From Nitrospiria bacterium (GTDB taxonomy: Bacteria; Nitrospirota; Nitrospiria; JACQBZ01), in assembly GCA_035498035.1 (NCBI GenBank), contig DATKAN010000043.1, positions 23,639 to 87,638 of the forward strand: a stretch of 64,000 nt of DNA, in the 5' to 3' direction. The position numbers and the translations under genes were made by a program. Below, in pieces: positions 1 through 50,152 of the stretch; positions within the stretch are counted from its first letter, which is position 1, and the number at the start of each line of letters is the position of its first letter. The notes under the pieces are model-generated. The model ran no database searches and was not told the DNA's origin. It worked only from the letters and a program-made list of their open reading frames with translations.

Positions 1-184
1 CATAATAGAACATTAGAAAGATCCCCGTCGTCGCCTGCATGATAAAGATAAAAAGGAGGGCGGAGCCGAAGGCGTAGGCATAGCTTGAACCGCCCGGCAT
101 CGGCTCGTTGAGCATCTTGGCCTGGAGCAGCTTCAGATCGATCCGCTCATCGATCCAGTTGTAGATGGTTTGAAATAACGACAT
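1..184 (-). CDS. cytochrome b, N-terminal fragment (gene continues beyond window start)
   Basis: Minus-strand reading from the ATG near 184 gives MSLFQTIYNWIDERIDLKLLQAKMLNEPMPGGSSYAYAFGSALLFIFIMQATTGIFLMFYY, which matches the conserved cytochrome b/b6 N-terminus. It sits about 18 nt downstream of the Rieske gene stop. Absent from the ORF track because it is truncated. Confidence 0.6.
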   Translation of the reverse strand, partial: MSLFQTIYNWIDERIDLKLLQAKMLNEPMPGGSSYAYAFGSALLFIFIMQATTGIFLMFYY

Positions 185-201: not shown

Positions 202-1164
202 TCAGATGATGCGAATCTGGTGATCCTTGCCGGCCTTGAACTCGGCGTCGATGACCTCGATATCCCCCGTTCCGGTGAGACGCATCGGGAGCACATCCAG
301 CCGCCGGGGGGCCGGTCCGTCCAGCACCTTTCCGCCCACGTCATAGATGCTCAGATGGCAGGGGCACCAAAACACTTTTCCGAAGCGCTTGTGGTTCTCC
401 TTCCATTTGTAGGCGCAGCCCAGATGGGGACACTTGCCGGAGTAGACGACGACCGGTTGGTCCGGGTTATCCACCCAGTAAACCTTTCCGCTCTCGTCTT
501 TGTACTCCATCGGCTTTCCGTGAAAAATCTCTTTCCTCACGTCGTCCGACATTCGAACCACCCAGTTCGCCTTCTCGAATGTCCGTTCAAGATACCCTTC
601 CTTGACCGTCTTCTTGAACCTGACCTGCTTGGGCTTGTCGATTTCCGTAACCTGACTAATATTGCCGATCTTGAGCCAGGCGTTATTGTAGCCCGGAAAC
701 ATCGGAAAGGTGAGATACCGGAGAACGGGATAAACCAGCGGCAGGGCCAGAACGACGCCGATGGCGTTCGTAAATTTCGTGAAAAAAGCCCGGCGGGTCA
801 AATCCCGTTCAAGCGTCGGTACCGGCACGAGCGCCTCTCCCGGAAACACCTCCAGGTGCCGCTCAAGCCCGGCGATCTCGACCTCCTTCACTTGTTGGTA
901 GAGTCCCCGCTCCAGCGCCGGGTACTGACCCATATTGGAGGATGGGAATTCTAACTGGACCAATCCGTCCGTGATCACCGCGTGGCCATCGACCGGGACG
1001 ACGCGTTCCATGCCGTCCGACTGCACGACGACGTGGCTGATCACCTTGGCGATGGGATCGATGATGACCCGCGACACCTCGCCGACTTCGCGATCGCTGC
1101 ACCGGACCTTGGATTTGATCTTAATCGTCATAGGAGATCGAACGGCCTCACGGTTGTTTGACAA
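202..1164 (-). CDS. Rieske [2Fe-2S] iron-sulfur protein with N-terminal PRC-barrel-like domain and one TM helix
   Basis: C-terminal half carries Rieske box I CPHLGC and box II CPCHLS about 18 residues apart. N-terminal ~100 aa (IKIKSKVRCSDREVGEVSRVIIDPIAKVISHVVVQSDG...) resemble a PRC-barrel, followed by a hydrophobic helix (AIGVVLALPLVYPVL). Start is ambiguous: TTG at 1164 overlaps the upstream cytochrome c gene; ATG near 1131 is an alternative. Confidence 0.75.
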   Translation of the reverse strand: MSNNREAVRSPMTIKIKSKVRCSDREVGEVSRVIIDPIAKVISHVVVQSDGMERVVPVDGHAVITDGLVQLEFPSSNMGQYPALERGLYQQVKEVEIAGLERHLEVFPGEALVPVPTLERDLTRRAFFTKFTNAIGVVLALPLVYPVLRYLTFPMFPGYNNAWLKIGNISQVTEIDKPKQVRFKKTVKEGYLERTFEKANWVVRMSDDVRKEIFHGKPMEYKDESGKVYWVDNPDQPVVVYSGKCPHLGCAYKWKENHKRFGKVFWCPCHLSIYDVGGKVLDGPAPRRLDVLPMRLTGTGDIEVIDAEFKAGKDHQIRII

Positions 1165-2032
1165 TCGGCTTCGGGGTGTTGACGCTCGTATTTTTCAGCG
1201 TGGACAGGTAGGTCGCCAGCGCGGTCAGTTCTTCTTCCGAAATAAGTTCCGTGTAATTTTTCGGCATGAGGCCCTTTTCGTACTCCTTCTCGAATCCGTC
1301 CGCCATCATGTATTTCGGATTGTAAACCTTCTTTTTGATCTGGTCGATCGTGGCCAGGTTCCCGATGTTGTCGAGCATCGGCCCGCGCTTTTTGACGCTG
1401 CCCCTACCGCCGATCTTGTGACAGTTATAACATTCATAGAGTTCGTAAACCTCTTTTCCATAGGCGACCGGATCCGACGGAGGAGCGCCCGAACTCGCCG
1501 CCCTCTTTTTGGCCAACTCTTCAGCCGTGGGCCCTTCGCCCGCAGTGCTCTGGCCGGTCATGGACTCCTCCAGCTTGGCCAAACGCTCCATGAGATCATT
1601 GGTTTTGGCCGACAGGGCTTCGGTCTGCTTGAGAACTTCCTGGGGTCTGATATCCGGATGGGACCGCTTTTTGGCCTCGATGATCATGGCGATCTTGCCC
1701 TTCTCCCACTCGGGATCGAACTGGGGCAGTTGTGTCCCGGCCCCGACATAGATCGCCGAACATATGACATAGAAGGCGAGGATCGCGATGAGGGCCTTGC
1801 CGCCCGAGAGGTCCGGCATCGGCGGGAGATCCAGAAGAAGGAAGACGACAAAACCCAGGACCGCATACATAACAAACATGATGCGGAAGACGGTGGGAAA
1901 GGCCAGCGCACCGCTCACAAACCAAAGTGCCAAGCCGATCACCGTGCAGACGATCAGCTTCCATTTAACGATGTCAAAGAAGCTCTTCTGGCCCTTCATA
2001 ACCTCTCCTTCATGCATCCGTTTCATTTCCAT
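1148..2032 (-). CDS. membrane-anchored monoheme c-type cytochrome
   Basis: About three N-terminal hydrophobic helices, a charged coiled-coil-like linker, and a single CYNCH heme-binding motif in the C-terminal domain. Confidence 0.7.
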   Translation of the reverse strand: MEMKRMHEGEVMKGQKSFFDIVKWKLIVCTVIGLALWFVSGALAFPTVFRIMFVMYAVLGFVVFLLLDLPPMPDLSGGKALIAILAFYVICSAIYVGAGTQLPQFDPEWEKGKIAMIIEAKKRSHPDIRPQEVLKQTEALSAKTNDLMERLAKLEESMTGQSTAGEGPTAEELAKKRAASSGAPPSDPVAYGKEVYELYECYNCHKIGGRGSVKKRGPMLDNIGNLATIDQIKKKVYNPKYMMADGFEKEYEKGLMPKNYTELISEEELTALATYLSTLKNTSVNTPKPIVKQP

Positions 2033-2044
2033 CGCCGGATCCGC

Positions 2045-3553
2045 TCACGATTCCTTGGTTTTTCCCATCCGAAGACTGAGCCAGATCGCGAGACTGACGA
2101 TCGCGAAGAAAGCGATGGTCATCGCCGTGATCATCACGCTGGCGTGAGCGAGCGTGGGCGTGTAGGACTCGGGGGAGTAATCCGGAAACAGAATGTAGAC
2201 ATGGAAATATTTTCGCACCAGGGAACGCACGGCGCCCATCAGGCCCATCGTCCAGATCGCCGAAAAGGCCAGGAAGATCAAAACGAACTGGGAGGCGAAG
2301 TCGATCTTGCCCCACTGAATCGTGCCGCGCTTGATGGCCCGGTTGTAGATGATGTAGTTGATGATCGTTATCGCCACGATCAGGGCCGCGGCCGTGCTCT
2401 TCGCGGGCATCAGCGCCAGGAATCCCCAATCCGAGGGCAGCTCCAGCGCGTCAGTCGCGGTCGCCTGGGTCGCGGAGAAGCCGTGCGGGGTCATCCAGAT
2501 GGCGTTCCCGAGCAGGATGATCGCAAAGCCGGATTTCACCATGACGGAGTTGGGGATTCCGAGGAACTTCATCGTTTCGATGCCCGAGATGCGCTTCATC
2601 GATTGCCAAATGTACAGATTGCTGGCCGTGAAGATCAGTCCGACCATGGCCCCCTGCATCTCGAAATACATCGAGAGCTGGTCGGCCATCATGTACGGCC
2701 CGATCGAGGCGTCGAACTCGAAGAATTCGGCCGCGAGAATATAACCTGCCAGCGGGAGAAGAAGAAGGGCCCCCACGCCGATCAAATTCCCCACAAAGCC
2801 CATCCAGTCATAATAAGCCTTCTCCTCCGGCGTCTTGGCAAACATGTACATGTAGGCCGCGATCAATCCGGTGATGAATCCGCCGAAGGTCACGTTCCCG
2901 ATCGTCCGGTGAAGATTTAACGGCATCCAGCTGTAGTTGTAGACCGAATCCCAGAGGGTGGCGGTCTCGATGGGATGGGGCGGTGTGTTCATGAACGAAG
3001 TCGGGGCGTTGATCACGACGAGGGTGGTCAGTCCGATGATGTTCAGCAGCACCCCGATCGCAACGTGACGGCCTTTTTTCGGCCCCATGAGTTTGTCCCA
3101 GGTATACCAGTAAAGGTAGAGCACCAAGGTCTCGGCGATGAACAGGAGCGGATAGATGATCGCAAAGATGGGGAAGAAATGGCTCACCAGAAAACTGGTC
3201 AGGTTGGGATAAAGACCGATCAGAAACAGAATGAACAGCCCCCCCGTCAACGCCGTCATGCTGTACAGGATCGTGGTGACCTTGGTCACTTCCTTGGCCA
3301 GCCGGTCGTATCGGGGATCGTTTTTACGCATCCCGATCCATTCCGAGATCACGACGAAGATCGGAGCCCCGAGAATAAAGGCCGCGAAAAGGATGTGCAT
3401 CTGCGCCGCAATCCAGACCAGCCCCCGGTTCTCGATCCCCGGGATCGAATAGCCCTCCGGTTCCGGCACCTGAGCATGGCCCGCTCCGGCCATCAGACCC
3501 AGGCCGATCAGACCGAGGAGAATCGCAAGGAGGGTCAAGCGCCGGCGTTTCAT
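2045..3553 (-). CDS. cytochrome bd oxidase subunit I-like polytopic membrane protein (bd-like oxidase)
   Basis: 502-aa multi-helix membrane protein whose N-terminal region resembles CydA. No cydB-like gene is adjacent. Its ATG overlaps the stop of the upstream cytochrome c gene (ATGA). Confidence 0.6.
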   Translation of the reverse strand: MKRRRLTLLAILLGLIGLGLMAGAGHAQVPEPEGYSIPGIENRGLVWIAAQMHILFAAFILGAPIFVVISEWIGMRKNDPRYDRLAKEVTKVTTILYSMTALTGGLFILFLIGLYPNLTSFLVSHFFPIFAIIYPLLFIAETLVLYLYWYTWDKLMGPKKGRHVAIGVLLNIIGLTTLVVINAPTSFMNTPPHPIETATLWDSVYNYSWMPLNLHRTIGNVTFGGFITGLIAAYMYMFAKTPEEKAYYDWMGFVGNLIGVGALLLLPLAGYILAAEFFEFDASIGPYMMADQLSMYFEMQGAMVGLIFTASNLYIWQSMKRISGIETMKFLGIPNSVMVKSGFAIILLGNAIWMTPHGFSATQATATDALELPSDWGFLALMPAKSTAAALIVAITIINYIIYNRAIKRGTIQWGKIDFASQFVLIFLAFSAIWTMGLMGAVRSLVRKYFHVYILFPDYSPESYTPTLAHASVMITAMTIAFFAIVSLAIWLSLRMGKTKES

Positions 3554-4020
3554 TTAGGTGCTCCGGCTGGCGGCGTGTATTCGTGAACGGCGGGTTGGCC
3601 TCCGTGTGAAAAGGTGTTTTCGAAGGCCATGACCTTCCAGCGGTCCTCTTCCGAAAGCTTTTCCTTCCAGGCCTTCATCTTGGTGTTCGGCACTCCTTCC
3701 GAAATTCTCCAGAACCAGAAACTATCCGAAAAATATTTCATATTCTCGGCCTGACGGAAGTCGCGGGCGCCTCGTTTAACCGGCTTCCCGTCTTTTCCGT
3801 GACAGCTGGAGCAGTTGACGTCGATATTCGCCTCGCCCATGAATATTTTTTTCCCTTCATCGACGATTTTCGGATCCACCCACCATCCCTCCGGCATATG
3901 CTTATTGGCGTATTCCGCCGGAACCGGAGGGAATTCGAGAGGATTCTCCCCGCCCCCGCTGCACGCCGTCATGAACGCTATGATACCGATTCCGCCCAAT
4001 ATCGATGACCATCTTTTCAT
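3550..4020 (-). CDS. c-type cytochrome, exported (probable lipoprotein)
   Basis: Signal peptide MKRWSSILGGIGIIAFMTAC and a CSSCH heme motif. AAGGAG-like SD upstream of the ATG near 4020; the ORF is open to 4083 but those extra codons are unlikely to be translated. Confidence 0.7.
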   Translation of the reverse strand: MKRWSSILGGIGIIAFMTACSGGGENPLEFPPVPAEYANKHMPEGWWVDPKIVDEGKKIFMGEANIDVNCSSCHGKDGKPVKRGARDFRQAENMKYFSDSFWFWRISEGVPNTKMKAWKEKLSEEDRWKVMAFENTFSHGGQPAVHEYTPPAGAPK

Positions 4021-4363
4021 ATTCAACTTTCGCTCCTTTCTTTTCGATTGCAAGGGCTCGCAGCGCCCCTCTCCGTAGCCCACCCTTCCGAGCGACTCGA
4101 CTGAACCCGCCGGGAAGATCTTCGTACAGCCTTGTTGTCACGACTCATAAAAAAACGCCTCCACCCGCATCACTCATGGGAGAAAGCGTCATGGTACGTA
4201 TCAAAATCAAATATCGCTCGTTCCTCCGCGCCCTCAACTTGAGACCCAACCGTCCTTTCAAATCGGAGGGCTTCGCCGTGAGGAAAAAATCTTCACGCGC
4301 CCACCCCCTCCGAGCGTGCGCAGGCAAAGCCCGATGCGCTTCTACTCCTTACTTTCGAAACTC

Positions 4364-4867
4364 CTACGGTGCGGGAGTCTTTCGCCGTCGGGACCGCCTC
4401 CAAAAAACAAAGACGATGGTCACGCCCGCGGCCAGGACCGCTCCGGCCAGCACCGACATCCCGTTTCCCGAAAATCCGGGAAGGCCGCCTCCCGGCGCCC
4501 CAAAATCGATACGGCCCTTCCGAACGGTGACTTTATCGTTCGGGTCGAACGCGGCCCGGATTGTTTTCCGCTGTTCCAGGGCGGTCACGATAATCTCATC
4601 GCCCAGGTCGGCATTGTGGAGATGCAACAGCGCTTCAAACCCGCCGTTCCGATCGGTGAAGACCGTCATTCCTTCATCCAAGCGGGGGTCGACCACGATG
4701 ACCTTGGTATCCGCTACGGGACGGCCCCGATCATCGTAAACCGCACCGTAAACCGTAAAACGGTGGTCGACCTCATGCGTGGCAAAGGCCGAGGAGGACG
4801 AGACGATGAACAAGATCGGCCATGCCCTCCATCCCCCATTCCATCGACGGAACAAACCTCCGAACAT
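4364..4867 (-). CDS. hypothetical exported protein with C-terminal membrane anchor
   Basis: ORF with signal-peptide-like N-terminus, a C-terminal hydrophobic helix and a basic tail (WRRSRRRK). Same strand as and 4 nt from the CBS gene. No recognisable catalytic motif. Confidence 0.35.
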   Translation of the reverse strand: MFGGLFRRWNGGWRAWPILFIVSSSSAFATHEVDHRFTVYGAVYDDRGRPVADTKVIVVDPRLDEGMTVFTDRNGGFEALLHLHNADLGDEIIVTALEQRKTIRAAFDPNDKVTVRKGRIDFGAPGGGLPGFSGNGMSVLAGAVLAAGVTIVFVFWRRSRRRKTPAP

Positions 4868-10870: not shown

Positions 10871-11167
10871 CTACTTCTTCTCCATCTTCATGTCCATCTT
10901 CATGTCCATCTTCATTTCCATGGCCTTGATGGATTTTGCATGTCCATTGGCATCGTCCACTTCGACATTAGCCCCGGCCTTGATATCTCCGGTCTTCTGA
11001 GTCGAATTATCAAAATGGATTCGGTGCTCCTTCCCCTCCTTGTCCTTGACGACATAAAAAGAGCCGTCGATTTTCGTCAGCTCGCCCGTAACCATTCCGG
11101 CCCAACTCATGCTGACAAAAGACAGGACCACAACCCCTACAACCAAACCCAGTAACATTCGCTTCAT
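10871..11167 (-). CDS. small secreted protein with C-terminal Met-rich repeat (MEMKMDMKMDMKMEKK)
   Basis: Signal peptide MKRMLLGLVVGVVVLSFVSMSWA, ~55-aa mature domain, and a C-terminal MxM tandem repeat encoded by a 12-nt tandem DNA repeat. Intrinsic terminator follows. Confidence 0.5.
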   Translation of the reverse strand: MKRMLLGLVVGVVVLSFVSMSWAGMVTGELTKIDGSFYVVKDKEGKEHRIHFDNSTQKTGDIKAGANVEVDDANGHAKSIKAMEMKMDMKMDMKMEKK

Positions 11168-11296: not shown

Positions 11297-11608
11297 CTAT
11301 TTCTTTTTCTTAGGAGCCGTTTTGGCGGAGGATTTCGGCGACTTCTTCTGAAGTTCCGCTACCTTGGCCTTAAGGTCTCCATTCTCCTTCTCAAGGTCGG
11401 CATTCTTTTTCTTCATCTCGTCCATTTGAGCCATCGTTTGACCCATCTGGGCCTGCATCCCCGCCTTGTCTTTCGTCATCGTGTCCACCTGCTGCTTCAG
11501 CTTGGCATTTTCATCTTTCAACTGCTTTGATTCACAGCCGGACAAAACAGGCAGAAACAAGAAAGAAAAAATTACCGCTGACAGGATCATTTTCCGCATG
11601 TCATTCAC
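11297..11608 (-). CDS. small lipoprotein with coiled-coil and Met-rich segment
   Basis: Lipobox LSGC after the signal peptide, heptad-like K/E/Q-rich region, and MQAQMGQTMAQMDEM. Confidence 0.45.
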   Translation of the reverse strand: MNDMRKMILSAVIFSFLFLPVLSGCESKQLKDENAKLKQQVDTMTKDKAGMQAQMGQTMAQMDEMKKKNADLEKENGDLKAKVAELQKKSPKSSAKTAPKKKK

Positions 11609-11814: not shown

Positions 11815-13227
11815 CTACACCTTTTCTGAGGTCTTGTCTGCCTCATTTGCGGCAAGGATTCCGGGTTTTTTAATTCCGTGCTTTTCCAAACGGTATTGCA
11901 AGGTTTTATAGGTCAGCCCCAGTAGTTTAGCCGCTTTCATGATAATCCAGTCGGATTGCTCCATGGCCTTAAAAATCAATTCACGCTCAAGCTCATCCAG
12001 GGAGATACCTTCAGCGGGCAACTGCAGTCCGAGTCCCGTCATCGGGGACGGCAGCCGGCAGATTTCCGGAGGAAGATCGGCGACGTCGATCACCTCCTGG
12101 CCGCAAAAAAGAACCGCCCGTTCAATGGAGGACTCCAATTGACGAACATTTCCAGGCCACGAATACTCGAGCAGCTTTCGCATGGCCTCACGACTTACGC
12201 CTTGGACCGGCCTTTCCGTTTTTTGGCTGTAGATCCGGATGAAATGCTGTACCAACTCCGGGATATCCGTGCTGCGCTCACGCAACGGAGGAATTTGAAT
12301 CGAAATGACATTCAACCGGTAATAGAGGTCTTCACGGAACAGATCCTTCTTGATCTCCTGATCCAGGCGCTTGTTGGTGGCCGCAATGACACGGACGTCG
12401 ATGGCCGTCTCTTCGGATCCTCCGATCCGCCGGATCTGTCGTTCCTGAAGCGTGCGAAGCAACTTGCCCTGAAGATGAAGACTGAGATCGCCTACCTCGT
12501 CCAGAAAAAGGGTTCCGCCATCGGCCGCCTCGAATAGCCCGATTCGTCGGCCCGCCGCCCCCGTAAATGCACCCTTTTCGTAACCGAACAATTCGCTTTC
12601 GATCAGCGTATCGGGAATGGCGGCGCAATTAATCGCCTGAAAGGGTTTATTCTTCCTCGCGCTATTGAAATGAATGGCACGGGCCAAGAGTTCCTTTCCC
12701 GTACCGGACTCCCCGTTGATCAGGACGGTCGCGGTGCTGTTCGATATTTTCTTAACCACATCAAAAACTTCCTGCATCCGGGGATGATTTCCTATTATGT
12801 TATTTATATGAAATTTTTCTTGAAGTTGTTGTCGGAGCCGGCTGTTTTCTTTTATGAGAGAGATCTTTTCAAAGGCCCGTTTTACCGCGATCAGCAGTTC
12901 TTCCCGCTCCAGCGGTTTGGTGATGTAATCCAATGCCCCCAGCTTCATCGCCTCGACCGCCGAATCAATCGAACCGTGGGCCGTCATGATGATTACGGAC
13001 GCGGACGGGTTCAACTGAAAAATCTTTTGAACGATCCCTAAGCCCTCCGTATCCGGCAGCTTCAGATCCGTCAGGACCACATCATATTCCCCGTTTTGGA
13101 ATTTACCCACCGCCTCCTTTGCGGTCGAGGCAAGATCCACTTCATATTTTTCAGACCGGAGAATGAGCCCCATAATTTCACGCTGGGACCGCTCATCATC
13201 AATCACAAGGATATTGCCCGGCTTCAC
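11815..13227 (-). CDS. sigma-54-dependent response regulator (NtrC family)
   Basis: Receiver domain (ILVIDDE...DVVLTDLKLPD), AAA+ sigma-54 activator domain (GESGTGKE, GAFTGA, ESELFGYEKGAFTGA) and C-terminal HTH. Probable GTG start at ~13227 overlaps the kinase stop (GTGA); the ORF is open to 13296. Confidence 0.85.
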   Translation of the reverse strand: MKPGNILVIDDERSQREIMGLILRSEKYEVDLASTAKEAVGKFQNGEYDVVLTDLKLPDTEGLGIVQKIFQLNPSASVIIMTAHGSIDSAVEAMKLGALDYITKPLEREELLIAVKRAFEKISLIKENSRLRQQLQEKFHINNIIGNHPRMQEVFDVVKKISNSTATVLINGESGTGKELLARAIHFNSARKNKPFQAINCAAIPDTLIESELFGYEKGAFTGAAGRRIGLFEAADGGTLFLDEVGDLSLHLQGKLLRTLQERQIRRIGGSEETAIDVRVIAATNKRLDQEIKKDLFREDLYYRLNVISIQIPPLRERSTDIPELVQHFIRIYSQKTERPVQGVSREAMRKLLEYSWPGNVRQLESSIERAVLFCGQEVIDVADLPPEICRLPSPMTGLGLQLPAEGISLDELERELIFKAMEQSDWIIMKAAKLLGLTYKTLQYRLEKHGIKKPGILAANEADKTSEKV

Positions 13228-14696
13228 GCATGTACTCCTTCCATGGGAAGGGATATGGTGACGGTCGTTCCCATCCCCTTCACGCTGGCGACCCAAATGG
13301 TTCCGCCATGCTCTTCCAAAACCCGTTTTGTCAACGCCAGTCCCAGTCCGATGCCGAGTTTCTTGGTCGTAAAATAGGGTTCGAAGATCTTTTGAAGGTG
13401 GTCCGCTTCGATGCCGCAGCCGGTATCTTCAAAATGCACCAGGACTCGGCTGTTCTCGTCGTCCATTTGTGCATGAATCCGCAACACCCCCCCCTGGCTC
13501 ATGGCCTGAAGCGCATTGACCGTGATGTTCACAAAACAGTTTTTGATCTGTTCCACATCGACCAACACCCGCGGAAGATCGCGAATGCCCCGAGTCTCAA
13601 ATTGAACCCCTTGATCCGCTCCCTTGGGGAGGGCCAATTGGAGGACATCGGACAAAATGGCGGCCAAATCGGCCGATTGCATCTGCAGGCGAATCGGTTT
13701 CCCAAAATCAAGAAAATTTTCGATCATTCGGTTCAGCCGATGAATTTCGGTCTTGATGTTGACGACCAGTTTGTCGATTTCTTCCTTATCAATAAAACGA
13801 GCCCGATCCAACTGGACGCGCAAATGATCGATGGAGAGGTTGATCAGATTCAAGGGATTGCGGATTTCATGGGCGATCCCGGAAGCCAATTGGCCGACGG
13901 CCGAGAGATGTTCCGCATGGCGCAGGCGGCCTTCGAGGGATTTCTGCAGCCGGAGCTTTTCCACCATTTCATTGAAGCTTCGGGTCAGCTCGCCGATCTC
14001 CTCTCCGCCCCCCTGTACGACCAACGGAGTGCTCAAATCGCCGGCCGCAACGTTTTTGGCCGCTTCCACAACCTGTTTGATGGGACGGGTGTATCGCCAC
14101 GCCAGATAGAACGAGAGGAAGATCCCCATCGAGAATATCGCGATATGCACGGCCAGACGTGTATAGAAGCTTCGCCGGATCAGGCGGTTAAAATCATCCA
14201 TGATCATGATGATATGGACATAACCCAACTGCTCCCCACCGACAACGATCGGGACCAAAATGTTATAGGGCTTCTGGTCTTTTTTCGTTCCGGCGTCCTC
14301 TCCGATCCGTTCTGTAATGATCAGATCGCGATGCTTGGGATCCGGAGATCGCTCTTTCCGATGAGGATTTGAACTGGCGATGACTTGATTTTCGTTGCTC
14401 AGAATGGAAATTTCCTTTACCCCTTTCTTATTGAGCCGCTTGACGTAATCTCTCAAACGGGCCTCGTCCGTGGCCCCGTGCGTCGTCAGCTGTTCGACGC
14501 TGATCTGGATCGCCGTCGTCAGGTCCTCCGTGTCGGCCATGATTTCTCTGACGACCGCTTGCTCGGTCAGCCAGTAGAAGGCCAAGGAGGCCATCAAGGA
14601 TAACAACAAAAGCGAGAGCATCATGAGGAGAAGCTTGGTATTGAGCCGGAGATGCTCCAAGCGATTGGAGATAGTTCTCAATGCGGATCTTACCAT
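13224..14696 (-). CDS. sensor histidine kinase (periplasmic sensor, HAMP, HisKA, HATPase)
   Basis: Two TM helices flanking a ~130-aa periplasmic region, HAMP, H-box (SGIAHEIRNPLN), and N/G boxes (DTGCGIE, GLGLAL). Confidence 0.85.
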   Translation of the reverse strand: MVRSALRTISNRLEHLRLNTKLLLMMLSLLLLSLMASLAFYWLTEQAVVREIMADTEDLTTAIQISVEQLTTHGATDEARLRDYVKRLNKKGVKEISILSNENQVIASSNPHRKERSPDPKHRDLIITERIGEDAGTKKDQKPYNILVPIVVGGEQLGYVHIIMIMDDFNRLIRRSFYTRLAVHIAIFSMGIFLSFYLAWRYTRPIKQVVEAAKNVAAGDLSTPLVVQGGGEEIGELTRSFNEMVEKLRLQKSLEGRLRHAEHLSAVGQLASGIAHEIRNPLNLINLSIDHLRVQLDRARFIDKEEIDKLVVNIKTEIHRLNRMIENFLDFGKPIRLQMQSADLAAILSDVLQLALPKGADQGVQFETRGIRDLPRVLVDVEQIKNCFVNITVNALQAMSQGGVLRIHAQMDDENSRVLVHFEDTGCGIEADHLQKIFEPYFTTKKLGIGLGLALTKRVLEEHGGTIWVASVKGMGTTVTISLPMEGVHA

Positions 14697-15929: not shown

Positions 15930-16883
15930 TCAAGTCTTGACCGCATGGACAGGATGGGAGATAAACACCCACCCGAGGCCGCCAAGGACATTAAGCGAGG
16001 TATTCAGGATCAACCAGAGAACGGCAAAAGCCAAGGCCTGAGGGTTCGCAACCCCCGCCTGGGTCAAAAAATATACGTATGCGCCCTCTCGAACACCCAA
16101 GCCGTTCAAGCTGATCGGAACCATACCGGCCACGGTTACCAGGGGGATGAAAACAAAATAATATTCCCATGGGACGGAGACGTTCACCGCCAGACCGATG
16201 ATCATGCTGATGATAACGACGGACAGTTGGATAAAAAATGAGGCCGCAAGCGATGCCGCCATGAACCGAGGATTTTCCCAGTAGCGATAGGGCAATTCAT
16301 ACCTCCTCAAAAAACCTGGAAATGCAAATGGGATAAAAAGACCCAGTATCAGCAAGGCCGTCGCACCCAGTATGAAGGCGGTCATCCAGACCGGGACCGT
16401 CACCGAGCCGGCCAGCGATAGGGCAAAGGAGGTGATGCACAGAAGGGCGGTCATCCCGCTGATCCGATCGGCCAGGATAGTCGTCATCGCGCGCAGGATG
16501 TCGCTGCGACCCCCGGCTAAATAGTAGCATTTTCCGAGGTCACCCCCGATCGAAGTTGGAAGAAAGAGGTTGAAAAATAAGCCGACAAAGTAAAAAGCGG
16601 CCAGGCGACCGAAGGATTGCCGATAACCCTGAACCCGCGCCATAACCTGCCAACGAAGGATTCCGACAAACTGCAGCCCGAAAAAGCTGACCCAGGCCAG
16701 CACAAAATAGCCGACATGAAGATTCTGCAGCACGTGCCCCACCGAAGGGAGATCGATTTTTGAAAACAGAAAGCCGAGTAAGCCCAGACTGACGATCGCT
16801 TTCAGAGAGGTCGTCAGCCATCGGCGAGGCCCGGGCGATGGCGGAATGGAAATCGCGATTTTAGAAATTGGTGGCCAGGACAT
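15930..16883 (-). CDS. flippase-like integral membrane protein (lysylphosphatidylglycerol synthase TM-region / UPF0104 family)
   Basis: Polytopic membrane protein with composition typical of this family; overlaps the ArnT-like gene upstream. Confidence 0.6.
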   Translation of the reverse strand: MSWPPISKIAISIPPSPGPRRWLTTSLKAIVSLGLLGFLFSKIDLPSVGHVLQNLHVGYFVLAWVSFFGLQFVGILRWQVMARVQGYRQSFGRLAAFYFVGLFFNLFLPTSIGGDLGKCYYLAGGRSDILRAMTTILADRISGMTALLCITSFALSLAGSVTVPVWMTAFILGATALLILGLFIPFAFPGFLRRYELPYRYWENPRFMAASLAASFFIQLSVVIISMIIGLAVNVSVPWEYYFVFIPLVTVAGMVPISLNGLGVREGAYVYFLTQAGVANPQALAFAVLWLILNTSLNVLGGLGWVFISHPVHAVKT

Positions 16884-18522
16884 AGCCTCCCTGCTCCGAG
16901 CGGATGATCAGCTGAGGCATGGTATCCAAGACCGGGACCAAATGGATTTGGCTCAACACCACCGCACGGCCATGAGCCGATAAAAATCGGCGCAGGTCTT
17001 CCTCCTGCTTTGACTTAAAGATGACCGCCCCTCTGCGGGCATAAAACAATATGCTGGGTTTTTTCAGCCCGAAGACCACCAGAGGTTCCTCGGGACGAAT
17101 CCACCCGCGCGTTTCTTGAGTCAGGTTTCGCAACGGCACTTGAATATAGGAACTGACGGATGGAATGAAGTCGAACAGCAAGACAAATACAAAGACTCCC
17201 ATCATGAGAACCAACACCATAAAACCCGCCCACTGCCTCCCGAGGCGCAGCAGCGCATAGTAGGTCATCACCCCGATCAAGGGAACCCCGGCCATGACCA
17301 TCAACACCCCGTTCAACTCAATCGGCTGGGCCAGGAAGGGCGCCAAGGCTCCGAATTTTACCCGTGCCCATTCGATCCCTTGGGGAATAGACAAAATCAG
17401 GACGGCCGTAATCAGAGTCAGGCCGACCGTAAAGCCCATCGTAAGTCGGTCTTCCACCCGGACCGTTGACGGTGCCGCATCCATTCTCCGGTCCATATAA
17501 CGGGCCACCCAAATGGCCAAAGCCGGAACGGCGGGTGCGATATAGCTGGGAAGTTTGGTGCCGGCCAAGGTAAAGAAAAGGAAGACGACCGCGACCCATA
17601 GCAGAAGAAACCACTCCAACGGATGGTTCGCCGGAAAGAGCCGGAGATTTTTCCATCGCTCCGATAAGTCCTTGCCGGGGAACATGGAAACAACGGAAGC
17701 GGGAAGGAACGCCACCCATGGGAAAAAACCAATCGCCAGGATTCCCAGATAATAGAACGGGGCCCCGGCATGGCCTCCGAGAACGGACGTGAACCGCTCG
17801 ATATTATGGTGCAGGAAAAAAGATTTCCAAAAAGCCTCGCCGTGAAGGCGAAACATCGCCGCATACCACGGCAGGGCGATGGCGCCGAAGATCAAAATAC
17901 CCCATCCCGGTCGAAGATCAAGAATCAGTTTCCATCGGGGGCCAACGGTGAGGATGAAAAGAAAAATCGTCATTCCCGGCAGAACAAGGCCGACCGGACC
18001 TTTGGTCAAAACCGCCAGGGCGGCGCCCAGATAAATCCCGACGGCCCAGAGGGCGCGCTCTGTTTTGTAGAGCAGGTAGTAACTGGCCAGCGAGACCGTG
18101 ATAAAAAAAACCAAAAGCATATCGGTCAAGGCGGCATGGGATAGCGCTACCATCTCAAGATTACTGGCCAGGATGAGCATCGCCAACAATCCGGCTCTGG
18201 GGCTCGCGACCCGCCGGGTCAAACCATAGGTCACGACCAGCAGCGCGAGACCGAAGACCGCGGATGTCAATCGAGCCGCAAATTCGGACGGCCCGAAAAT
18301 CTTGAAGGCCGCTCCCATGAACCAGTACAGCAGAATGGGCTTTTCGTAAAAGGGCGAGTAATTAACCTGCGGAGTGATCCAATTACCGGTCTCAACCATT
18401 TCCCGGGTGGTTTCGGCGTAAATCGCCTCGTCCAAATCAAACAGCGGCACGGCCCCGAGCTGATAGAAGAAAAGAAACCCTCCCAGCATCAGCGCCGGCC
18501 AGAAACCGGTGTTTCGGGTCAT
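16861..18522 (-). CDS. ArnT/PMT-family glycosyltransferase (GT39/GT83, polyprenyl-phosphate-sugar dependent)
   Basis: N-terminal FFYQLGAVPLFDLDEAIYAETTREM...YSPFYEKPILLYW pattern characteristic of ArnT/PMT transferases; 553-aa multi-TM protein. Confidence 0.7.
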   Translation of the reverse strand: MTRNTGFWPALMLGGFLFFYQLGAVPLFDLDEAIYAETTREMVETGNWITPQVNYSPFYEKPILLYWFMGAAFKIFGPSEFAARLTSAVFGLALLVVTYGLTRRVASPRAGLLAMLILASNLEMVALSHAALTDMLLVFFITVSLASYYLLYKTERALWAVGIYLGAALAVLTKGPVGLVLPGMTIFLFILTVGPRWKLILDLRPGWGILIFGAIALPWYAAMFRLHGEAFWKSFFLHHNIERFTSVLGGHAGAPFYYLGILAIGFFPWVAFLPASVVSMFPGKDLSERWKNLRLFPANHPLEWFLLLWVAVVFLFFTLAGTKLPSYIAPAVPALAIWVARYMDRRMDAAPSTVRVEDRLTMGFTVGLTLITAVLILSIPQGIEWARVKFGALAPFLAQPIELNGVLMVMAGVPLIGVMTYYALLRLGRQWAGFMVLVLMMGVFVFVLLFDFIPSVSSYIQVPLRNLTQETRGWIRPEEPLVVFGLKKPSILFYARRGAVIFKSKQEEDLRRFLSAHGRAVVLSQIHLVPVLDTMPQLIIRSEQGGYVLATNF

Positions 18523-19151
18523 GATTTAAAGTACTCCAACTTAAGCCGCGAAGCCCACATCCCGATCAACACGCCCAAAACGGCCCCGACGAAGACGTCC
18601 GAGGCGAAATGGGCGCCGATATAAATCCGTGTAAAGGCCACGAGGACAGCGAGAGAATACCAGGCCCATTGGCCGGCCGGGTAGAAGGCGGACAGAACCG
18701 CCGCCATGGCAAAGGATGACAGGGCGTGTCCGGATGGAAGAGAGTCATGGCCGCTTTGAAAAGAAGGACCCCAATCGACGATCCCCTGATCCGCCAGTCT
18801 GGGCCGTGGCCGTCCGATCAGGTGCTTGATCGTCTGAACCGCAAGACCGGAAACCGCCAGGGCAATCAGGCTCGACACGGCGGCCTTCTTCAATTTAAGG
18901 TTTTCTCGCAGGGAGCCGATTCCGAGGAGAACGGCCGCAATAAGCGCCTGGACCCACCCGACTCCCAGCCCGGTCAGGAAATGCATGAACCTGAGCAAGA
19001 CGGGATCCCGCAGACCTTTAAAGACACGGTAGATCAGGCCGTCTTCAAGAATGATTAACGGAAAAAGCCCTATAAGGATGAGCGTCCAGGTCAAACCCTT
19101 TCGGGTCATCTGCAAACGATCGGCACAATCCGAGATCGGATTAATCATCAA
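18519..19151 (-). CDS. PAP2-family phosphatase (phosphatidic acid phosphatase type 2 / lipid phosphate phosphatase)
   Basis: PAP2 signature motifs KHLIGRPRP, PSGH, and SRIYIGAHFASD. Confidence 0.7.
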   Translation of the reverse strand: MMINPISDCADRLQMTRKGLTWTLILIGLFPLIILEDGLIYRVFKGLRDPVLLRFMHFLTGLGVGWVQALIAAVLLGIGSLRENLKLKKAAVSSLIALAVSGLAVQTIKHLIGRPRPRLADQGIVDWGPSFQSGHDSLPSGHALSSFAMAAVLSAFYPAGQWAWYSLAVLVAFTRIYIGAHFASDVFVGAVLGVLIGMWASRLKLEYFKS

Positions 19152-20112
19152 ACCCCATCTTCTCTCGCAGAATATAAAGCGGACGGCGTTTGACTTCTTC
19201 GTAAGTTCGTCCCAGATACTCCCCCATCATTCCCAGAACAATCAGCTGGACACCGGCCAAGAAAAGGACCGCCACCATGAGTGAGCCCCACCCGTGAATG
19301 GGAAATCCCAGGAGCTCGGTCTGATTGAAGAAAAGACGCCCGAAAATCACAAACAGCCCGAAAAGAAAACTCACGACCGACACGATCAGCCCGAGATAGA
19401 TCGCCACGCGCAATGGAGCAAACGAAAAAGAGGTCACCCCATCCCAGGCCAGCTTGAGCATCTTGCCGAAGGGGTATTTTGTGCTTCCGGCAAACCGTTT
19501 ACTTCGTGGAAAAAGAACCCCCGTCTGGCGAAAGCCTACCCAGAGCGTCAGCCCGCGGACAAAGCGGTGACGTTCCCCAAGCGACCGAAACACGTCCACG
19601 ACTTTTCGGTCCAGCAGACGGAAGTCGCCGGCATCGACCGGAAGATCAAGATTCCCGATCTTTTGCATGAGGGCGTAAAACAGACGGGCCGTGGTCCGCT
19701 TAAACCAGGTGTCCGTTTCTCGACTTTCGCGAACGCCATAAACCACCTCATATCCGTCGCGCCATTTGTCCAGCAACCGAGGGATCGTCTCGGGCGGATC
19801 CTGAAGATCCGCGTCGATCACCACAACCGCATCCCCCTTCGCGTGATCCAATCCCGCCGTCAAGGCGATCTCGTGACCGAAATTTCTGGAGAACTGCAGC
19901 ACCTTGACGGATTTATCCCCCTGCATCAGTTCCGACAGAATCTTTGCGGTGCCGTCTTGGCTTCCATCATCCACAAAAATGATCTCCGTGCCCGATAAAC
20001 CGCGCAGTTCTGTAAGGACCGCGTGAAGCCGCTTGTAGAATTCCTGAAGAACCGCCTCTTCATTGTAAACCGGAACCACCACGCTCAGGAGGGGTCTATC
20101 CGGAATGGTCAT
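19141..20112 (-). CDS. family-2 glycosyltransferase (ArnC / dolichyl-phosphate mannose synthase-like)
   Basis: GT2 DXD region (VVVPVYNEE, IFVDDGSQDGT, VVIDADLQDPP) plus two C-terminal TM helices. ATG near 20112 with AGGAGG SD; the ORF is open to 20193. Confidence 0.8.
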   Translation of the reverse strand: MTIPDRPLLSVVVPVYNEEAVLQEFYKRLHAVLTELRGLSGTEIIFVDDGSQDGTAKILSELMQGDKSVKVLQFSRNFGHEIALTAGLDHAKGDAVVVIDADLQDPPETIPRLLDKWRDGYEVVYGVRESRETDTWFKRTTARLFYALMQKIGNLDLPVDAGDFRLLDRKVVDVFRSLGERHRFVRGLTLWVGFRQTGVLFPRSKRFAGSTKYPFGKMLKLAWDGVTSFSFAPLRVAIYLGLIVSVVSFLFGLFVIFGRLFFNQTELLGFPIHGWGSLMVAVLFLAGVQLIVLGMMGEYLGRTYEEVKRRPLYILREKMGFDD

Positions 20113-23981: not shown

Positions 23982-24866
23982 TTATGCGGCTCTCGGACGC
24001 CGCTCGGGATCAAGGGCATCACGCAGGGCGTCGCCCAGGACGTTGAAGGCGACCATCGTCAGAAACAAAACAAGGCTCGGGAACAAAATCAGATGGGGAT
24101 AGTACTTCATCGCGCTCCAGCCCTCGTTCGCCATGCTGCCCCAGCTGGCAAACGGGGGCGCGATTCCGAGGCCGATAAAACTCAAGGTGGATTCGGCCAG
24201 GATCGCGGCCGGTATGCGGAATGTCAGGGTCACGATCAGCACGCCCAGCGTATTGGGAAGAATATGGACGAGCAGGATCCGGTGATGCGGCGCGCCGACG
24301 GCGCGGGCGGCCTCCACATAGCTGAACTCCCGCAGCCTCAAGACCTCTCCTCGAATGATCCGCGCCACCGTCACCCAGCTCACGAGGCTTAAGGCCAGAA
24401 ATATCCCCAGTACCCCCCGTCCGATCGTCACCGTGATCAGAATAATCAACAGGAGGTCCGGCAGCGCATAGACCAGATCCACGAACCGCATGAGGAGGTT
24501 GTCCGTTCTTCCTCCCACGTATCCGGACGCGGCGCCGTAAACCGTGCCGAACATCACAGCAAACAGCGCCGTAAAGACCCCGACCGCCATGGACATCCGC
24601 GCGCCGAAAAGCAATCGGGAAAAAAGGTCCCGTCCGAGACGGTCCGTACCCATCCAGTGTTGCGGACTCGGGCCCTGAAGGATGGAATGGGTATCCTGCT
24701 GATCGTATGGATAGGGCGCCAGCCATGGAGCGGCCAGCGCCGCCACCCCGATCAACAGGATAAATCCCCCGCTGATGAGGATTCTGGAATGGGATCGAAT
24801 GAATCGCTGAACCGTCATGAGATTCCGCACGCGGGACCCGGAATTCCGCCGGCCCGTCTCCGCCAC
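23982..24866 (-). CDS. oppC: oligopeptide/dipeptide ABC transporter permease (OppC/DppC-like)
   Basis: BPD_transp_1 permease with EAA-like loop (EAARAVGAPHHRILLVHILPN). Confidence 0.8.
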   Translation of the reverse strand: MAETGRRNSGSRVRNLMTVQRFIRSHSRILISGGFILLIGVAALAAPWLAPYPYDQQDTHSILQGPSPQHWMGTDRLGRDLFSRLLFGARMSMAVGVFTALFAVMFGTVYGAASGYVGGRTDNLLMRFVDLVYALPDLLLIILITVTIGRGVLGIFLALSLVSWVTVARIIRGEVLRLREFSYVEAARAVGAPHHRILLVHILPNTLGVLIVTLTFRIPAAILAESTLSFIGLGIAPPFASWGSMANEGWSAMKYYPHLILFPSLVLFLTMVAFNVLGDALRDALDPERRPRAA

Positions 24867-24869
24867 CCT

Positions 24870-25793
24870 CTAATGATCCCTAATCCGCATCCTCGGATCC
24901 AACCATATATAAACCAGGTCCACCACGATGTTCGCCGCCACAATCAGCACGGCGTAGATCAGCGTCACCCCCATGATCAGCGGGTAATCACGATTGGTTA
25001 CGGCCGTGATAAAATATCGACCCATTCCCGGAACCGAAAAGATAAATTCAACCACAAAGGACCCGGTGACCAGCGTCGCCGTCAACGGACCGAGGAAGGA
25101 TACCACCGGAGTGATCGAATTTTTCAGGGCATGCTTGAAGAGTACCCGCCGCTCGCCGAAACCCTTGGCCCGGACGGTCCGTATGAAATCCTTATTTAGA
25201 ACTTCCAGCATGCTCGACCGGGTCAACCTCGCGATATAGGCCGCGGGCAACAGGGCCAGGGTGACGGCGGGAAGGACACTGTAACGCCATCCCTCCCAAA
25301 GCGCCGCCGGAAACAGGTGAAGACGGTAACTGAAAATCAAGATGAGGAACGTGCCGATGACAAAACTCGGCACCGAAATCCCGGCCGTGGCCAGAAACAT
25401 GGCGGCGTGGTCCATCCAGGAAAGCGGCCGTGCGGCCGCAAGGATCCCGGCGCCGACACCCAGGAGGATCGAAATCAAAACGGCCCAAAGGCCGAGTTGC
25501 ATCGAAACCGGAAAGGTCTCCCGGATCATGTCGTTCACATTCCGTCCGAGATATTTATACGAGGGCCCGAAGTCCCCCCGCAGGAGGTCTCCAAGATAAA
25601 AAACATACTGGGTTAAAACGGGCCGATCCAAATGGTATTTGGAATCGACATTCGCCCGGATTTCGGGCGGCAGTGATTTTTCCTGGTCAAAGGGTCCTCC
25701 GGGGATCACATGCATCAGAACGAAGGTCGCCGTGGCCACCAGCCATAGCACGGGGATTCCCCAGGCCAATCTCTTCAGAGTATATCCTATCAA
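24870..25793 (-). CDS. oppB: oligopeptide/dipeptide ABC transporter permease (OppB/DppB-like)
   Basis: Permease with N-terminal MIGYTLKRL...HVIPGGPFD and conserved loop RTVRAKGFGERRVLFKHALKN. Confidence 0.8.
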   Translation of the reverse strand: MIGYTLKRLAWGIPVLWLVATATFVLMHVIPGGPFDQEKSLPPEIRANVDSKYHLDRPVLTQYVFYLGDLLRGDFGPSYKYLGRNVNDMIRETFPVSMQLGLWAVLISILLGVGAGILAAARPLSWMDHAAMFLATAGISVPSFVIGTFLILIFSYRLHLFPAALWEGWRYSVLPAVTLALLPAAYIARLTRSSMLEVLNKDFIRTVRAKGFGERRVLFKHALKNSITPVVSFLGPLTATLVTGSFVVEFIFSVPGMGRYFITAVTNRDYPLIMGVTLIYAVLIVAANIVVDLVYIWLDPRMRIRDH

Positions 25794-27379
25794 GGTTTCT
25801 CCAGGCGGACGTCCTTCAACTCGAGCAGCTCGAGGGGATTGATTCGAAGTCCGCGGACGTAAGGTTTGATCACCCAGTTCTGGGTCGCCACGAAGAGCGG
25901 CATGATCGCCGCATCCGTTTCAAGAAGTATTCGCTGGGCTTCATCGTAGGCCTTCTGCCTGTGGACAGGGTCGGAATCGGCCGAGGCGGATCGGATCAGC
26001 TCATCGTACCGATCGTTTCTCCACCGGGTCCGATTGTTCCCGCTGGTCGAGGTGAACAAATTCATGAAATTATCCGGATCGGGATAATCGGCTCCCCACC
26101 CCAGGCGGAACAAGGGCGGCGGGTCCGTCTGAAGCTGCTTGAGATAGACCTTCCATTCCTGGTTGTCCAGCCGGACTTCCACGCCCAGGTTCCGTTTCCA
26201 TTGCGCCTGGAGATTCTCGGCGATCAGGCTGTTTTCCGGGCTGGTATTGAAAACCGCCGTGACGGTCGGGAAACCCCGCCCGTCCGGAAAACCCGCCCCG
26301 GCCAGCAGCCTTCGCGCGGCTTCGGGATCGAAGGGCAGACCGATCGCGGGGTTATGGTAGGGCATTCCCGGAGGAACCCAGAAGGTCGCCGGGATCTCGC
26401 CCCGTTTCAGGATGGCGGGAAATTCCGTACGGTCGATCGCCATTGAAAAGGCGCGACGGATTCGGGGATCCGTGAATGGCGCCTTCTGCACATTAAAGCC
26501 GTAATAATATCCGCGGAGGATAGGGGCCGTTACATATTCGGACCTCCCGCGGTAGGTGGCCATCGCCTCGGGCGGAACCGTGGCCATTTCCAGATCACCG
26601 GTCTCGTAAAGGGTCAACGCGGTCGTGGTTTCATTGACGACGAACAGGGTCACCTTCCTCAGTGCGGGTTCGGGTCCGTAGTAATAGGGGTTTGGAGACA
26701 AGGTGAGCTTATATTCGTGCCGCCATTCGCCCAGCATGAAAGGGCCGTCGGTCACGATCCGGCCCGGCTCGGTCCATCTCTCACCGAATTTCTCGACGAT
26801 ATCGCGGCGCATGGGGAAGGTGACCATGAACGTGGTGATGCTCGGGAAAAAAACGATCGGTTTTCTCAGACGGACCTCAAGCGTCCGCTTGTCCAGCGCG
26901 CGGACCCCGACCGAGTCCGGTCGATCCGCCTTTCCGGTGTTATAATCCTCGGCGCCCTCGATGTCGTACAGAAAGTAGGCGTACTCCGCAGCGGTTTTCG
27001 GATTCAAGAGGCGCTTCCAGGAATACTCGAAATCTCCGGCCGTGACCGGTTCTCCGTCGCTCCAGCGGGCGTCTTCACGAAGGTGAAAAAGATAGGTGCG
27101 GCCATCGGGTGAGACGTCCCAGGAACGGGCCACGGCCGGGCGCGGACGGAGATGTTCGTCATATTCCGTGAGACCTTCCATCAGGTTGATCAAAACGTCG
27201 AACGAAACGCTGTCGGTGGCCAGATTCCAATCGAGCGTGGGCGGTTCGTTCGAAAGCGTCATCCGAAAGGTCGATCCATCCAAGGCCCGGGGGGCGCGCG
27301 CCCCGGCGCGGACAAACACGACAGCCAACACCAGTCCAACGATCACGGTCCCTGTGATGATTCTTCGCTCCATCGGCAA
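25790..27379 (-). CDS. oppA: ABC transporter substrate-binding protein, peptide/nickel family 5 (OppA/DppA-like)
   Basis: Signal peptide and family-5 solute-binding fold motifs; 529 aa. Confidence 0.8.
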   Translation of the reverse strand: MPMERRIITGTVIVGLVLAVVFVRAGARAPRALDGSTFRMTLSNEPPTLDWNLATDSVSFDVLINLMEGLTEYDEHLRPRPAVARSWDVSPDGRTYLFHLREDARWSDGEPVTAGDFEYSWKRLLNPKTAAEYAYFLYDIEGAEDYNTGKADRPDSVGVRALDKRTLEVRLRKPIVFFPSITTFMVTFPMRRDIVEKFGERWTEPGRIVTDGPFMLGEWRHEYKLTLSPNPYYYGPEPALRKVTLFVVNETTTALTLYETGDLEMATVPPEAMATYRGRSEYVTAPILRGYYYGFNVQKAPFTDPRIRRAFSMAIDRTEFPAILKRGEIPATFWVPPGMPYHNPAIGLPFDPEAARRLLAGAGFPDGRGFPTVTAVFNTSPENSLIAENLQAQWKRNLGVEVRLDNQEWKVYLKQLQTDPPPLFRLGWGADYPDPDNFMNLFTSTSGNNRTRWRNDRYDELIRSASADSDPVHRQKAYDEAQRILLETDAAIMPLFVATQNWVIKPYVRGLRINPLELLELKDVRLEKP

Positions 27380-37545: not shown

Positions 37546-37617
37546 AACATTTAACTCCGGAAACCAAGGCTCATAGACCCGGCCTGGATCAGCACAAACG
37601 GACAAGGTTCGGCGAGA

Positions 37618-41025: not shown

Positions 41026-41041
41026 CTCCTTTCGGCTCCGG

Positions 41042-41764: not shown

Positions 41765-41766
41765 TT

Positions 41767-42549: not shown

Positions 42550-42627
42550 CTCCGTTTCGTGACCGCCTCCTATAGTGATTCGCGTCGCCCCTCCCGCTCG
42601 CTATTCTCGCCGGGTCGCCTCTTCGAT

Positions 42628-43668: not shown

Positions 43669-43669
43669 G

Positions 43670-44590: not shown

Positions 44591-44864
44591 AAAGCTCCAG
44601 ATGCCCCCTCCGGGGACTTCCACATTTCGTATTACTGGAAGGGGGCCGCGAGGCCGCAGGGACCGAGGAGCCCGGAGCGTAAGGCAATAGGTACGTGAGG
44701 ACACCGAGGGACGGAGAACAAAGCAGATGGACTTTTTCAGCAGTTTGCAAGAGGGCATAAAAAATCCCCAAAGGCAAAACACCCAGCCCTTGAGGATTGC
44801 ACCCTGCTTCTTCACCCTAAGGTGAGCCGATCCGCCTTCTTCAATCGAAACGGAATAGGCCGCG

Positions 44865-50111: not shown

Positions 50112-50152
50112 TCCGGCCGGGTCGTTTTTTTACCTTTCGGAGGGGAGGAGTC

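Follow-up and report, generated by a model that had tools for sequence, protein, structure and literature searches.

A window of 64,000 nucleotides from an uncultured Nitrospirota lineage was analysed, and "the window" denotes this whole stretch throughout. It encodes a CydA-like membrane protein which stands without a cydB gene, lies among c-type cytochrome genes and begins like a secreted protein. This arrangement raises the question of which kind of bd-type subunit the gene encodes, which partner it would have and from where it would receive electrons. An earlier note, made from the sequence alone, had proposed a divergent member of the bd superfamily which takes its electrons from cytochrome c rather than from quinol.

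Gene structure and flanking genes

The 502-aa polytopic reading frame claimed in the earlier note was recovered with the N-terminus quoted there, MKRRRLTLLAILLGLIGLGLMAGAGHAQ. It starts with ATG, and a GGAG motif is situated 7 nt 5' of this codon. The ATG overlaps the stop codon (TGA) of the upstream cytochrome c gene as ATGA, which indicates translational coupling of the two genes. The coordinates of all features are given in Table 1.

Table 1. Features of the CydA-like locus in the window, with strand and the evidence for each.
Feature	Coordinates	Strand	Evidence
OR-N1-type CydA-like ("cytochrome bd-like_1") membrane subunit, 502 aa	2045..3553	-	ORF, Pfam, homologs, AlphaFold2, residue mapping
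Predicted cleavable Sec-type signal peptide, residues 1-27, MKRRR-LTLLAILLGLIGLGLMAGAG-HA↓QVP (↓, predicted cleavage)	3473..3553	-	n/h/c architecture, ortholog conservation
Monohaem cytochrome c (CSSCH), upstream of OR-N1	3550..4083	-	Pfam Cytochrome_CBB3 and Cytochrom_C; position kept in related loci
Membrane-anchored monohaem cytochrome c, downstream of OR-N1	1148..2032	-	Pfam Cytochrom_C, residues 189-280; position kept in related loci
Rieske [2Fe-2S] subunit, bc1/b6f type, N-terminal extension of ~110 aa	202..1164	-	Pfam Rieske
Cytochrome b (petB-like), first 61 codons, cut by the window edge	1..184	-	98% identity to L001 cytochrome b

Pfam searches confirmed that c-type cytochrome genes flank the gene on both sides. 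The true start of the upstream cytochrome is likely an ATG near position 4020 (MKRW...MTAC), which would give it a lipoprotein-like signal with a putative lipobox. The downstream cytochrome has hydrophobic helices in its N-terminal part, and its CYNCH domain is at the C-terminus. NCBIfam models for bc1 and b6f Rieske proteins match the Rieske subunit, all under their cut-offs. The ortholog of this subunit in N. moscoviensis also matches a PRC-barrel domain.

The rest of the window was scanned for a cydB or a canonical cydA, and neither was found. A tblastn comparison of E. coli CydA and CydB with the 64 kb window gave nothing below E = 0.4, and Pfam scans of 30 other large ORFs of the window revealed no PF02322 and nothing respiratory, housekeeping families only. 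The housekeeping genes include those for purine synthesis, ABC transporters, LptFG, a TonB receptor, riboflavin genes, PPDK and GlyS.

Family identity

The Pfam model PF01654 (Cyt_bd_oxida_I) matched the 502-aa protein with E = 5e-20 and 71.9 bits (cut-off 26.2). The match runs from residue 48 to 278 and corresponds to profile positions 8-238 of 418, so only the N-terminal half of the CydA model is covered. No match was obtained in a search of the NCBIfam models with the protein. A database search found 1874 homologs, exclusively in Nitrospirota. The best of them are 84-91% identical and likewise 502 aa long. Orthologs from Nitrospira are 567-572 aa long and share 59-62% identity with the window protein, the same range being found for the genes in bd-like_1 position of N. 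moscoviensis (L070) and N. defluvii (L057). Identity to the OR-N2 paralog (585 aa, compared at the locus with the 91%-identical protein) is 40%.

Members of the OR-N family were described as bd-like proteins without a quinol site, in which His19 and the first four helices are retained and which are found alongside alternative electron donors (Murali, Gennis and Hemp 2021; 10.1101/2021.01.16.426971). The window protein likewise has no quinol site and possesses a His19 equivalent in the retained first four helices. The OR-N1 signature of Ca. N. inopinata (H52/Y133/H162/H222) corresponds to H53/Y134/H163/H215, which are invariant in 80 orthologs. The signature was taken from Supplementary Table 6 of Murali et al. 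(2021), which was relied on for the N-terminal signature residues only. For OR-N1 this table is not self-consistent, since the Trp441 equivalent is placed after the Glu445 equivalent. Its "G140" at the Glu107 position also conflicts with the invariant E141 seen in the orthologs. The gene context typical for OR-N1, homologs of petA and petB (/petD), is represented by the Rieske gene and by the start of the cytochrome b gene.

Because identity, operon position and OR-N1 signature residues agree, the gene is, as judged by sequence, an ortholog of Nitrospira "bd-like_1" and belongs to the OR-N1 subfamily of the OR-N family. Later papers trace the description of Nitrospira bd-like_1 back to 2010 (Lücker et al. 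2010). The window protein shares with it (2010; Mundinger et al. 2019) the operon position, the residues H53/Y134/H163/H215, the lack of a Q-loop and the signal-peptide-like N-terminus. It differs in having an Ile where Nitrospira bd-like_1 has M400, the Met393 equivalent of Murali et al., and in lacking a two-helix insert. The gene thus adds one more ortholog, from an uncultured Nitrospirota lineage, to an already described family.

Active-site residues and the missing Q-loop

Residues were mapped by phmmer, by profile hmmsearch against PDB sequences and by hhalign against E. coli CydA, and the three methods were concordant. H53 is the equivalent of E. coli His19 (His21 in Geobacillus) and H215 that of His186, the haem b558 histidine; both are invariant in the 80 orthologs. 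E141, also invariant, corresponds to Glu107, and T142 to Ser108 in all three alignments. H163, again invariant in the 80 orthologs, corresponds to His126 according to the table of Murali et al. Glu99 is replaced, by I133 in the E. coli register and by Y134 in the Geobacillus register, so the proton-channel pair Glu99/Glu107 is incomplete. The TM1-4 bundle as such is alignable to canonical CydA at E = 1.6e-14.

Alignable similarity to CydA stops by residue ~281, equivalent to E. coli 249 in hhalign and just before Lys252/Glu257. Helices 6 and 7 are joined by ~12 residues (281-292), in contrast to a Q-loop of 80-150 residues. Neither a Q-loop nor the quinol-binding Lys252/Glu257 was found in the alignments or in the helix map of the protein. 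As phmmer, hmmsearch and hhalign all end at or before residue ~281, no equivalent of Met393, Trp441 or Glu445 is aligned. The residue assigned as the Met393 equivalent by Murali et al. (M400) is I345 in the window protein; among the 80 orthologs the 73 long forms have Met at this position, whereas each of the 7 short forms has Ile or Val. The invariant M382, M436 and M439 are candidate haem ligands, and M382 is predicted to be situated where helix 9 begins on the periplasmic side. Helices 9-11 were also checked for an invariant Glu, and none was found.

Compared with canonical CydA (E. coli 6RKO/6RX4, G. thermodenitrificans 5DOQ), the window protein has in common the fold, the equivalents of His19, Glu107, Ser108, His126 and His186 and the periplasmic N-terminus. 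Unlike canonical CydA, it has neither a Q-loop nor Lys252/Glu257, its Glu99 is replaced, a signal peptide and two further helices are present, and its gene lies without adjacent cydB/cydX in an operon of cytochrome c and bc-complex genes. The suggestion of the earlier note that the protein is divergent within the bd superfamily is supported by the match to the N-terminal half of PF01654, the CydA fold and the retained His19 and His186 equivalents.

Predicted signal peptide

The signal-peptide-like N-terminus pointed out in the earlier note is real and conserved. A basic n-region, a variable hydrophobic h-region and then a [A/G/V/S]-x-A↓Q-x-P site were found in all but one of 51 orthologs. Column identity across the 51 orthologs is 0.43 for residues 1-24, 0.88 for the c-region, 0.94 for TM1 and 0.87 for residues 42-502. 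Of 50 more distant, full-length OR-N relatives, 37 have the same architecture, and so has the OR-N2 paralog. The combination of a conserved cleavage-type site with a poorly conserved hydrophobic core suggests that the N-terminal segment is apparently a Sec signal peptide which would be cleaved. A Tat-type signal peptide was rejected; the RR pair of MKRRR is not conserved among orthologs, which makes the Sec type likelier. A Sec signal peptide agrees with CydA, whose N-terminus is periplasmic. The 14 helices counted for OR-N1 in the literature may include the signal segment. The family-wide signal peptide with an A-x-A↓Q-x-P site appears to be a new detail.

Topology, fold and the short form

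Hydropathy and AlphaFold2 predicted 11 TM helices after a first helix at the N-terminus (residues 2-24). The AlphaFold2 model is of moderate confidence (mean pLDDT 73.7, pTM 0.71). According to the positive-inside rule, the mature N-terminus is placed outside and the C-terminus inside the cell. When the model was compared with the PDB by Foldseek, the ten best matches were all CydA chains with probability 1.00 and TM-scores of 0.41-0.59, and CydB chains formed a second tier.

The window protein is ~70 aa shorter than the Nitrospira orthologs. These carry an insert of ~60-70 aa after the position of window residue ~330, with two hydrophobic segments, which the clade of the window protein lacks. 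Short forms of 502-507 aa account for 7 of the 80 orthologs compared. Counted together, the window protein has 12 hydrophobic helices (signal peptide and 11) against the 14 reported for Nitrospira OR-N1. This difference is a lineage-specific indel within an orthologous group and no argument against OR-N1 membership. The lack of the two helices and of the b558 Met assigned by Murali et al. in this lineage appear to be new details.

The invariant residues M289, H357, M382, M436, M439 and H451 are common to OR-N2. Their predicted position is at the periplasmic side or facing it, partly in loops modelled with low confidence by AlphaFold2. A speculative and rather improbable extension would take the short OR-N1 form, with 11 helices and neither the hairpin nor the assigned b558 Met, as the minimal core of the family. 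The six residues could then form an undescribed cofactor or metal site or a docking site for cytochrome c, and OR-N1, secreted N-terminus-first by its cleaved signal peptide, would itself be active as a second subunit for electron entry or catalysis and no passive substitute for CydB.

Operon organization and the OR-N2 paralog

Contigs with a 91%-identical protein (L001-L003) are syntenic with the window over at least 10 kb upstream and make the full operon visible. It is composed of eleven genes in the order cytochrome c, OR-N1, membrane cytochrome c, Rieske, cytochrome b, 116-aa ORF, OR-N2 (585 aa), cytochrome c, cytochrome c, EB_dh and cytochrome c. The EB_dh product is an ethylbenzene dehydrogenase gamma-like periplasmic haem b protein. 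The same gene order was found in ~80 species-level genomes, N. moscoviensis and N. defluvii included. OR-N2 is encoded on the same strand downstream of OR-N1 in all 58 loci which reach at least 6 kb beyond OR-N1. It is the fifth gene downstream of OR-N1 and lies beyond the end of the window, which falls inside the cytochrome b gene. The absence of CydB stated in the earlier note thus holds for the 64 kb window, but it reflects the position of the window edge. The "missing CydB" is explained by this edge together with the architecture of the family, the OR-N2 paralog being located just outside, and the partner of OR-N1 is likely OR-N2, not CydB.

OR-N2 ("bd-like_2", NIDE0901-like), for which the role of a novel terminal oxidase of Nitrospira has been proposed, resembles OR-N1 in several features. 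Both are encoded in the same operon, both have a signal peptide, and the ten invariant residues H53, E141, H163, H215, M289, H357, M382, M436, M439 and H451 are present in both. OR-N2 is longer (at least 585 aa) and more conserved across the phylum, with 73-77% identity compared with 59-62% for OR-N1. It also has invariant His259, His379-His380, Cys80 and Cys240 (numbered after the OR-N2 of L003, which is identical to the L001 copy), where the window protein has Y247, E371-L372, S70 and A228. The His residues found only in OR-N2 (H259, H379-H380) fit the copper site proposed for NIDE0901. They also agree with the published view that such a putative site exists in the NIDE0901-type paralog only. 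Since these OR-N2-specific His are absent from OR-N1, OR-N1 may not be the catalytic subunit.

Possible role and electron donor

The best explanation of the locus is that OR-N1 belongs to a bd-like putative terminal oxidase co-encoded with a Rieske/cytochrome b complex in Nitrospirota. OR-N1 would be inserted via a cleaved Sec signal peptide, so that the mature protein would begin in the periplasm, as CydA does. The CydA active-site bundle would be retained in the first four helices (H53, E141, T142, H163) and the haem b558 histidine (H215) in helix 5. As the quinol-binding Q-loop is missing, electrons would reach the protein on its periplasmic side, delivered by the c-type cytochromes of the operon. 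The adjacent bc complex would in turn supply these cytochromes, and in nitrite oxidisers NXR would do so as well, via the EB_dh-type haem b protein. OR-N1 and OR-N2 would assemble to a heterodimer of the CydAA' type, with a CydA paralog instead of CydB, and this complex would reduce O2. We consider it fairly probable that OR-N1 is such a haem-binding subunit fed by co-encoded cytochromes c, which forms with OR-N2 a CydAA'-type O2 reductase linked physically or functionally to the adjacent bc complex; haem binding, donor, pairing and O2 reduction are what we infer here.

This reading has precedents. A CydA paralog replaces CydB in the CydAA' of Caldivirga maquilingensis (qOR4a/qOR4b), for which O2 reduction was shown (10.1101/2021.01.16.426971). 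The Caldivirga enzyme differs in that its subunit I has a quinol site and its A' has lost His186; OR-N1 and OR-N2 both lack the quinol site and both have the His186 equivalent. OR-N1 together with NIDE0901-like OR-N2 was proposed to be probably a CydAA'-type oxidase using cytochrome c (PMC12342949, PMC10839748). Transcription of the cluster CIII_1, bd-like_1, bd-like_2 and alt_nxrC_1 is strong in N. moscoviensis, and the cluster was proposed to encode a III-IV supercomplex (PMC6606698). A literature search for a structure or a purification of a bd-like complex returned nothing relevant.

With OR-N1 placed among c-type cytochrome genes, cytochrome c is a plausible donor as far as gene content can indicate. 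Quinol-derived electrons via the bc module are equally plausible, as OR-N1 is tied to the Rieske and cytochrome b genes. A cytochrome c donor was already hypothesised for the OR-N family (10.1101/2021.01.16.426971; PMC10839748), hence the donor hypothesis of the earlier note is no new idea.

The bc connection also allows a division into two enzymes. OR-N1 and its immediate neighbours (cytochrome c, membrane cytochrome c, Rieske and cytochrome b) would then form a self-contained quinol-oxidising, O2-reducing bc/bd-like supercomplex, and OR-N2 with two cytochromes c and EB_dh a separate oxidase linked to cytochrome c or NXR. OR-N1 is typically found beside petA/petB and OR-N2 beside cytochromes c and an EbdC homolog (Murali et al.; 10.1101/2021.01.16.426971), and the supplement of Murali et al. 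suggests that OR-N1 complexes use quinol through petA/petB/petD subunits. The translational coupling of the upstream cytochrome c gene to OR-N1 is in line with such a unit, as is the retention of both His ligands in OR-N1, unlike in haem-free CydB or the qOR4b CydA'. Other organisms have OR-N2-type proteins but no OR-N1 to pair with them (10.1101/2021.01.16.426971; TO_1, 10.1101/2021.11.15.468770), so pairing with OR-N1 is not obligatory for OR-N2. However, in this lineage all eleven genes are closely packed in a single operon with one orientation, and OR-N1 was never seen without OR-N2 in the 58 loci. Moreover, CydA-family subunits are paired with CydB or a CydA-like partner in every solved structure, and later comparative papers favour the CydAA' heterodimer (PMC12342949). 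Two separate enzymes are unlikely, though this division is the main alternative.

A doubtful reading, less probable than the division into two enzymes, is that OR-N1 is no oxygen reductase at all. It would serve instead as a haem-containing electron-transfer or scaffold module, for example on a path by which electrons run in reverse between the quinone pool and cytochromes c, or as a non-catalytic CydB-like partner. Lücker et al. 2013 considered that bd-like proteins could act like an alternative complex III in reverse electron transport (PMC3578206), and the role of bd-like_1 was described as unknown in PMC6606698. The missing Glu99 equivalent and the absence of the OR-N2-specific His from OR-N1 point in the same direction. 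But H53, E141, T142 and H163 are invariant in the 80 orthologs and common to OR-N2, which is unexpected for a purely structural subunit, and a quinone site is likewise not recognisable in OR-N1.

That the gene encodes a canonical quinol-oxidising CydA, with its cydB at another place in the genome, is scarcely conceivable and is ruled out by the missing Q-loop: public annotation pipelines name the homologs "cytochrome ubiquinol oxidase subunit I", but similarity ends at ~281 ahead of the short joint between helices 6 and 7, NCBIfam gives no match, there are 11 helices rather than 9, and canonical cydAB operons exist separately in Nitrospira genomes besides the bd-like gene (PMC6606698).

Significance for the OR-N family

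Nitrospira and related nitrifiers have an important part in the nitrogen cycle of the globe, and the foremost candidates for their terminal oxidase are the OR-N (bd-like) proteins. The window itself adds little to the question of the Nitrospira terminal oxidase. Useful details for the design of expression constructs and for the reading of structures are the apparently cleavable signal peptide of both OR-N paralogs and the natural short form which lacks two helices. For the reading of structures it is also of use that the assigned b558 Met is not conserved in the short form, while M382 is invariant.

Residues of the membrane subunit OR-N1

The published residue assignments of OR-N1, the CydA-like membrane subunit, were compared with an alignment of its orthologs (alignment A1). 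In Supplementary Table 6 of Murali et al., the Glu107 equivalent of OR-N1 is given as 'G140'; the position aligned to this residue (E141 in the window) is occupied by a glutamic acid which is invariant in 80 orthologs. The same table gives M400 as the equivalent of Met393, and this position is not conserved within the clade of short-form OR-N1 proteins, which do not have the two-helix insert of Nitrospira orthologs.

Organization of the oxidase operon and other gene clusters

The Rieske protein of the operon possesses an extension N-terminal to its membrane helix. A Pfam match to PRC-barrel (PF05239) was found in the N. moscoviensis ortholog (E = 2e-4), and the window copy showed no PRC-barrel match at the threshold of E = 0.01. 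A PRC-barrel is unusual in a bc-type Rieske subunit. The region ahead of the operon is ambiguous in coding. Its minus-strand ORF overlaps the stretch to which gene callers assigned an opposite-strand gene of 105-140 aa in the three syntenic loci (L001-L003). This region is likely to be the promoter region of the oxidase operon as well.

Two small secreted-looking proteins are encoded upstream of a two-component pair. One possesses a repetitive C-terminal tail (KMDMKMDMKMEKK). The other is rich in lysine, glutamine and methionine and apparently coiled-coil, and its N-terminus resembles a lipoprotein signal. At the matching positions, L001 carries genes of 99 aa and 94 aa. The genes adjoining those of riboflavin biosynthesis compose a cluster of the kind typical for siderophore or cobalamin uptake. 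Several 2-kb blocks showed strongly positive AT skew (0.18-0.30) and coincide with minus-strand genes of integral membrane proteins. This skew probably reflects the codon composition of genes for hydrophobic proteins.

Features of the window and the OR-N2 example, with positions
Feature	Position	Strand	Remarks
Rieske protein	202-1164	-	extension of ~110 aa
Ambiguous coding region	4229-4867
167-aa ORF	4364-4867	-	weak CarboxypepD_reg match (E = 2e-4, below cut-off)
Small secreted-looking protein	10871-11167	-
Small secreted-looking protein	11297-11608	-
Sigma-54 response regulator and histidine kinase	11815-14696
Uptake-type cluster	38968-44815	-	TonB-dependent receptor, TonB, ABC ATPase, FecCD permease, periplasmic binding protein
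Riboflavin biosynthesis genes	45054-45704, 52947-54059
Positive-AT-skew blocks	16001-20000, 24001-26000, 36001-38000, 42001-44000, 50001-52000		minus-strand genes: LPG_synthase_TM, PMT-type glycosyltransferase, ABC permeases, Na/H exchanger, FecCD, MFS
OR-N2 example	L003:9765-11522

Conserved residues of OR-N2

OR-N2, the second CydA-like paralog of the operon, is more conserved across the phylum (73-77% identity) than OR-N1 (59-62%). Among loci L001-L083, a His-His pair (H379-H380, L003 numbering) is invariant in OR-N2 and has no counterpart in OR-N1. H259 and two cysteine residues (C80 and C240) are also invariant, and all are absent from OR-N1. H379-H380, H259, C80 and C240 are candidate residues of the putative NIDE0901 copper site.
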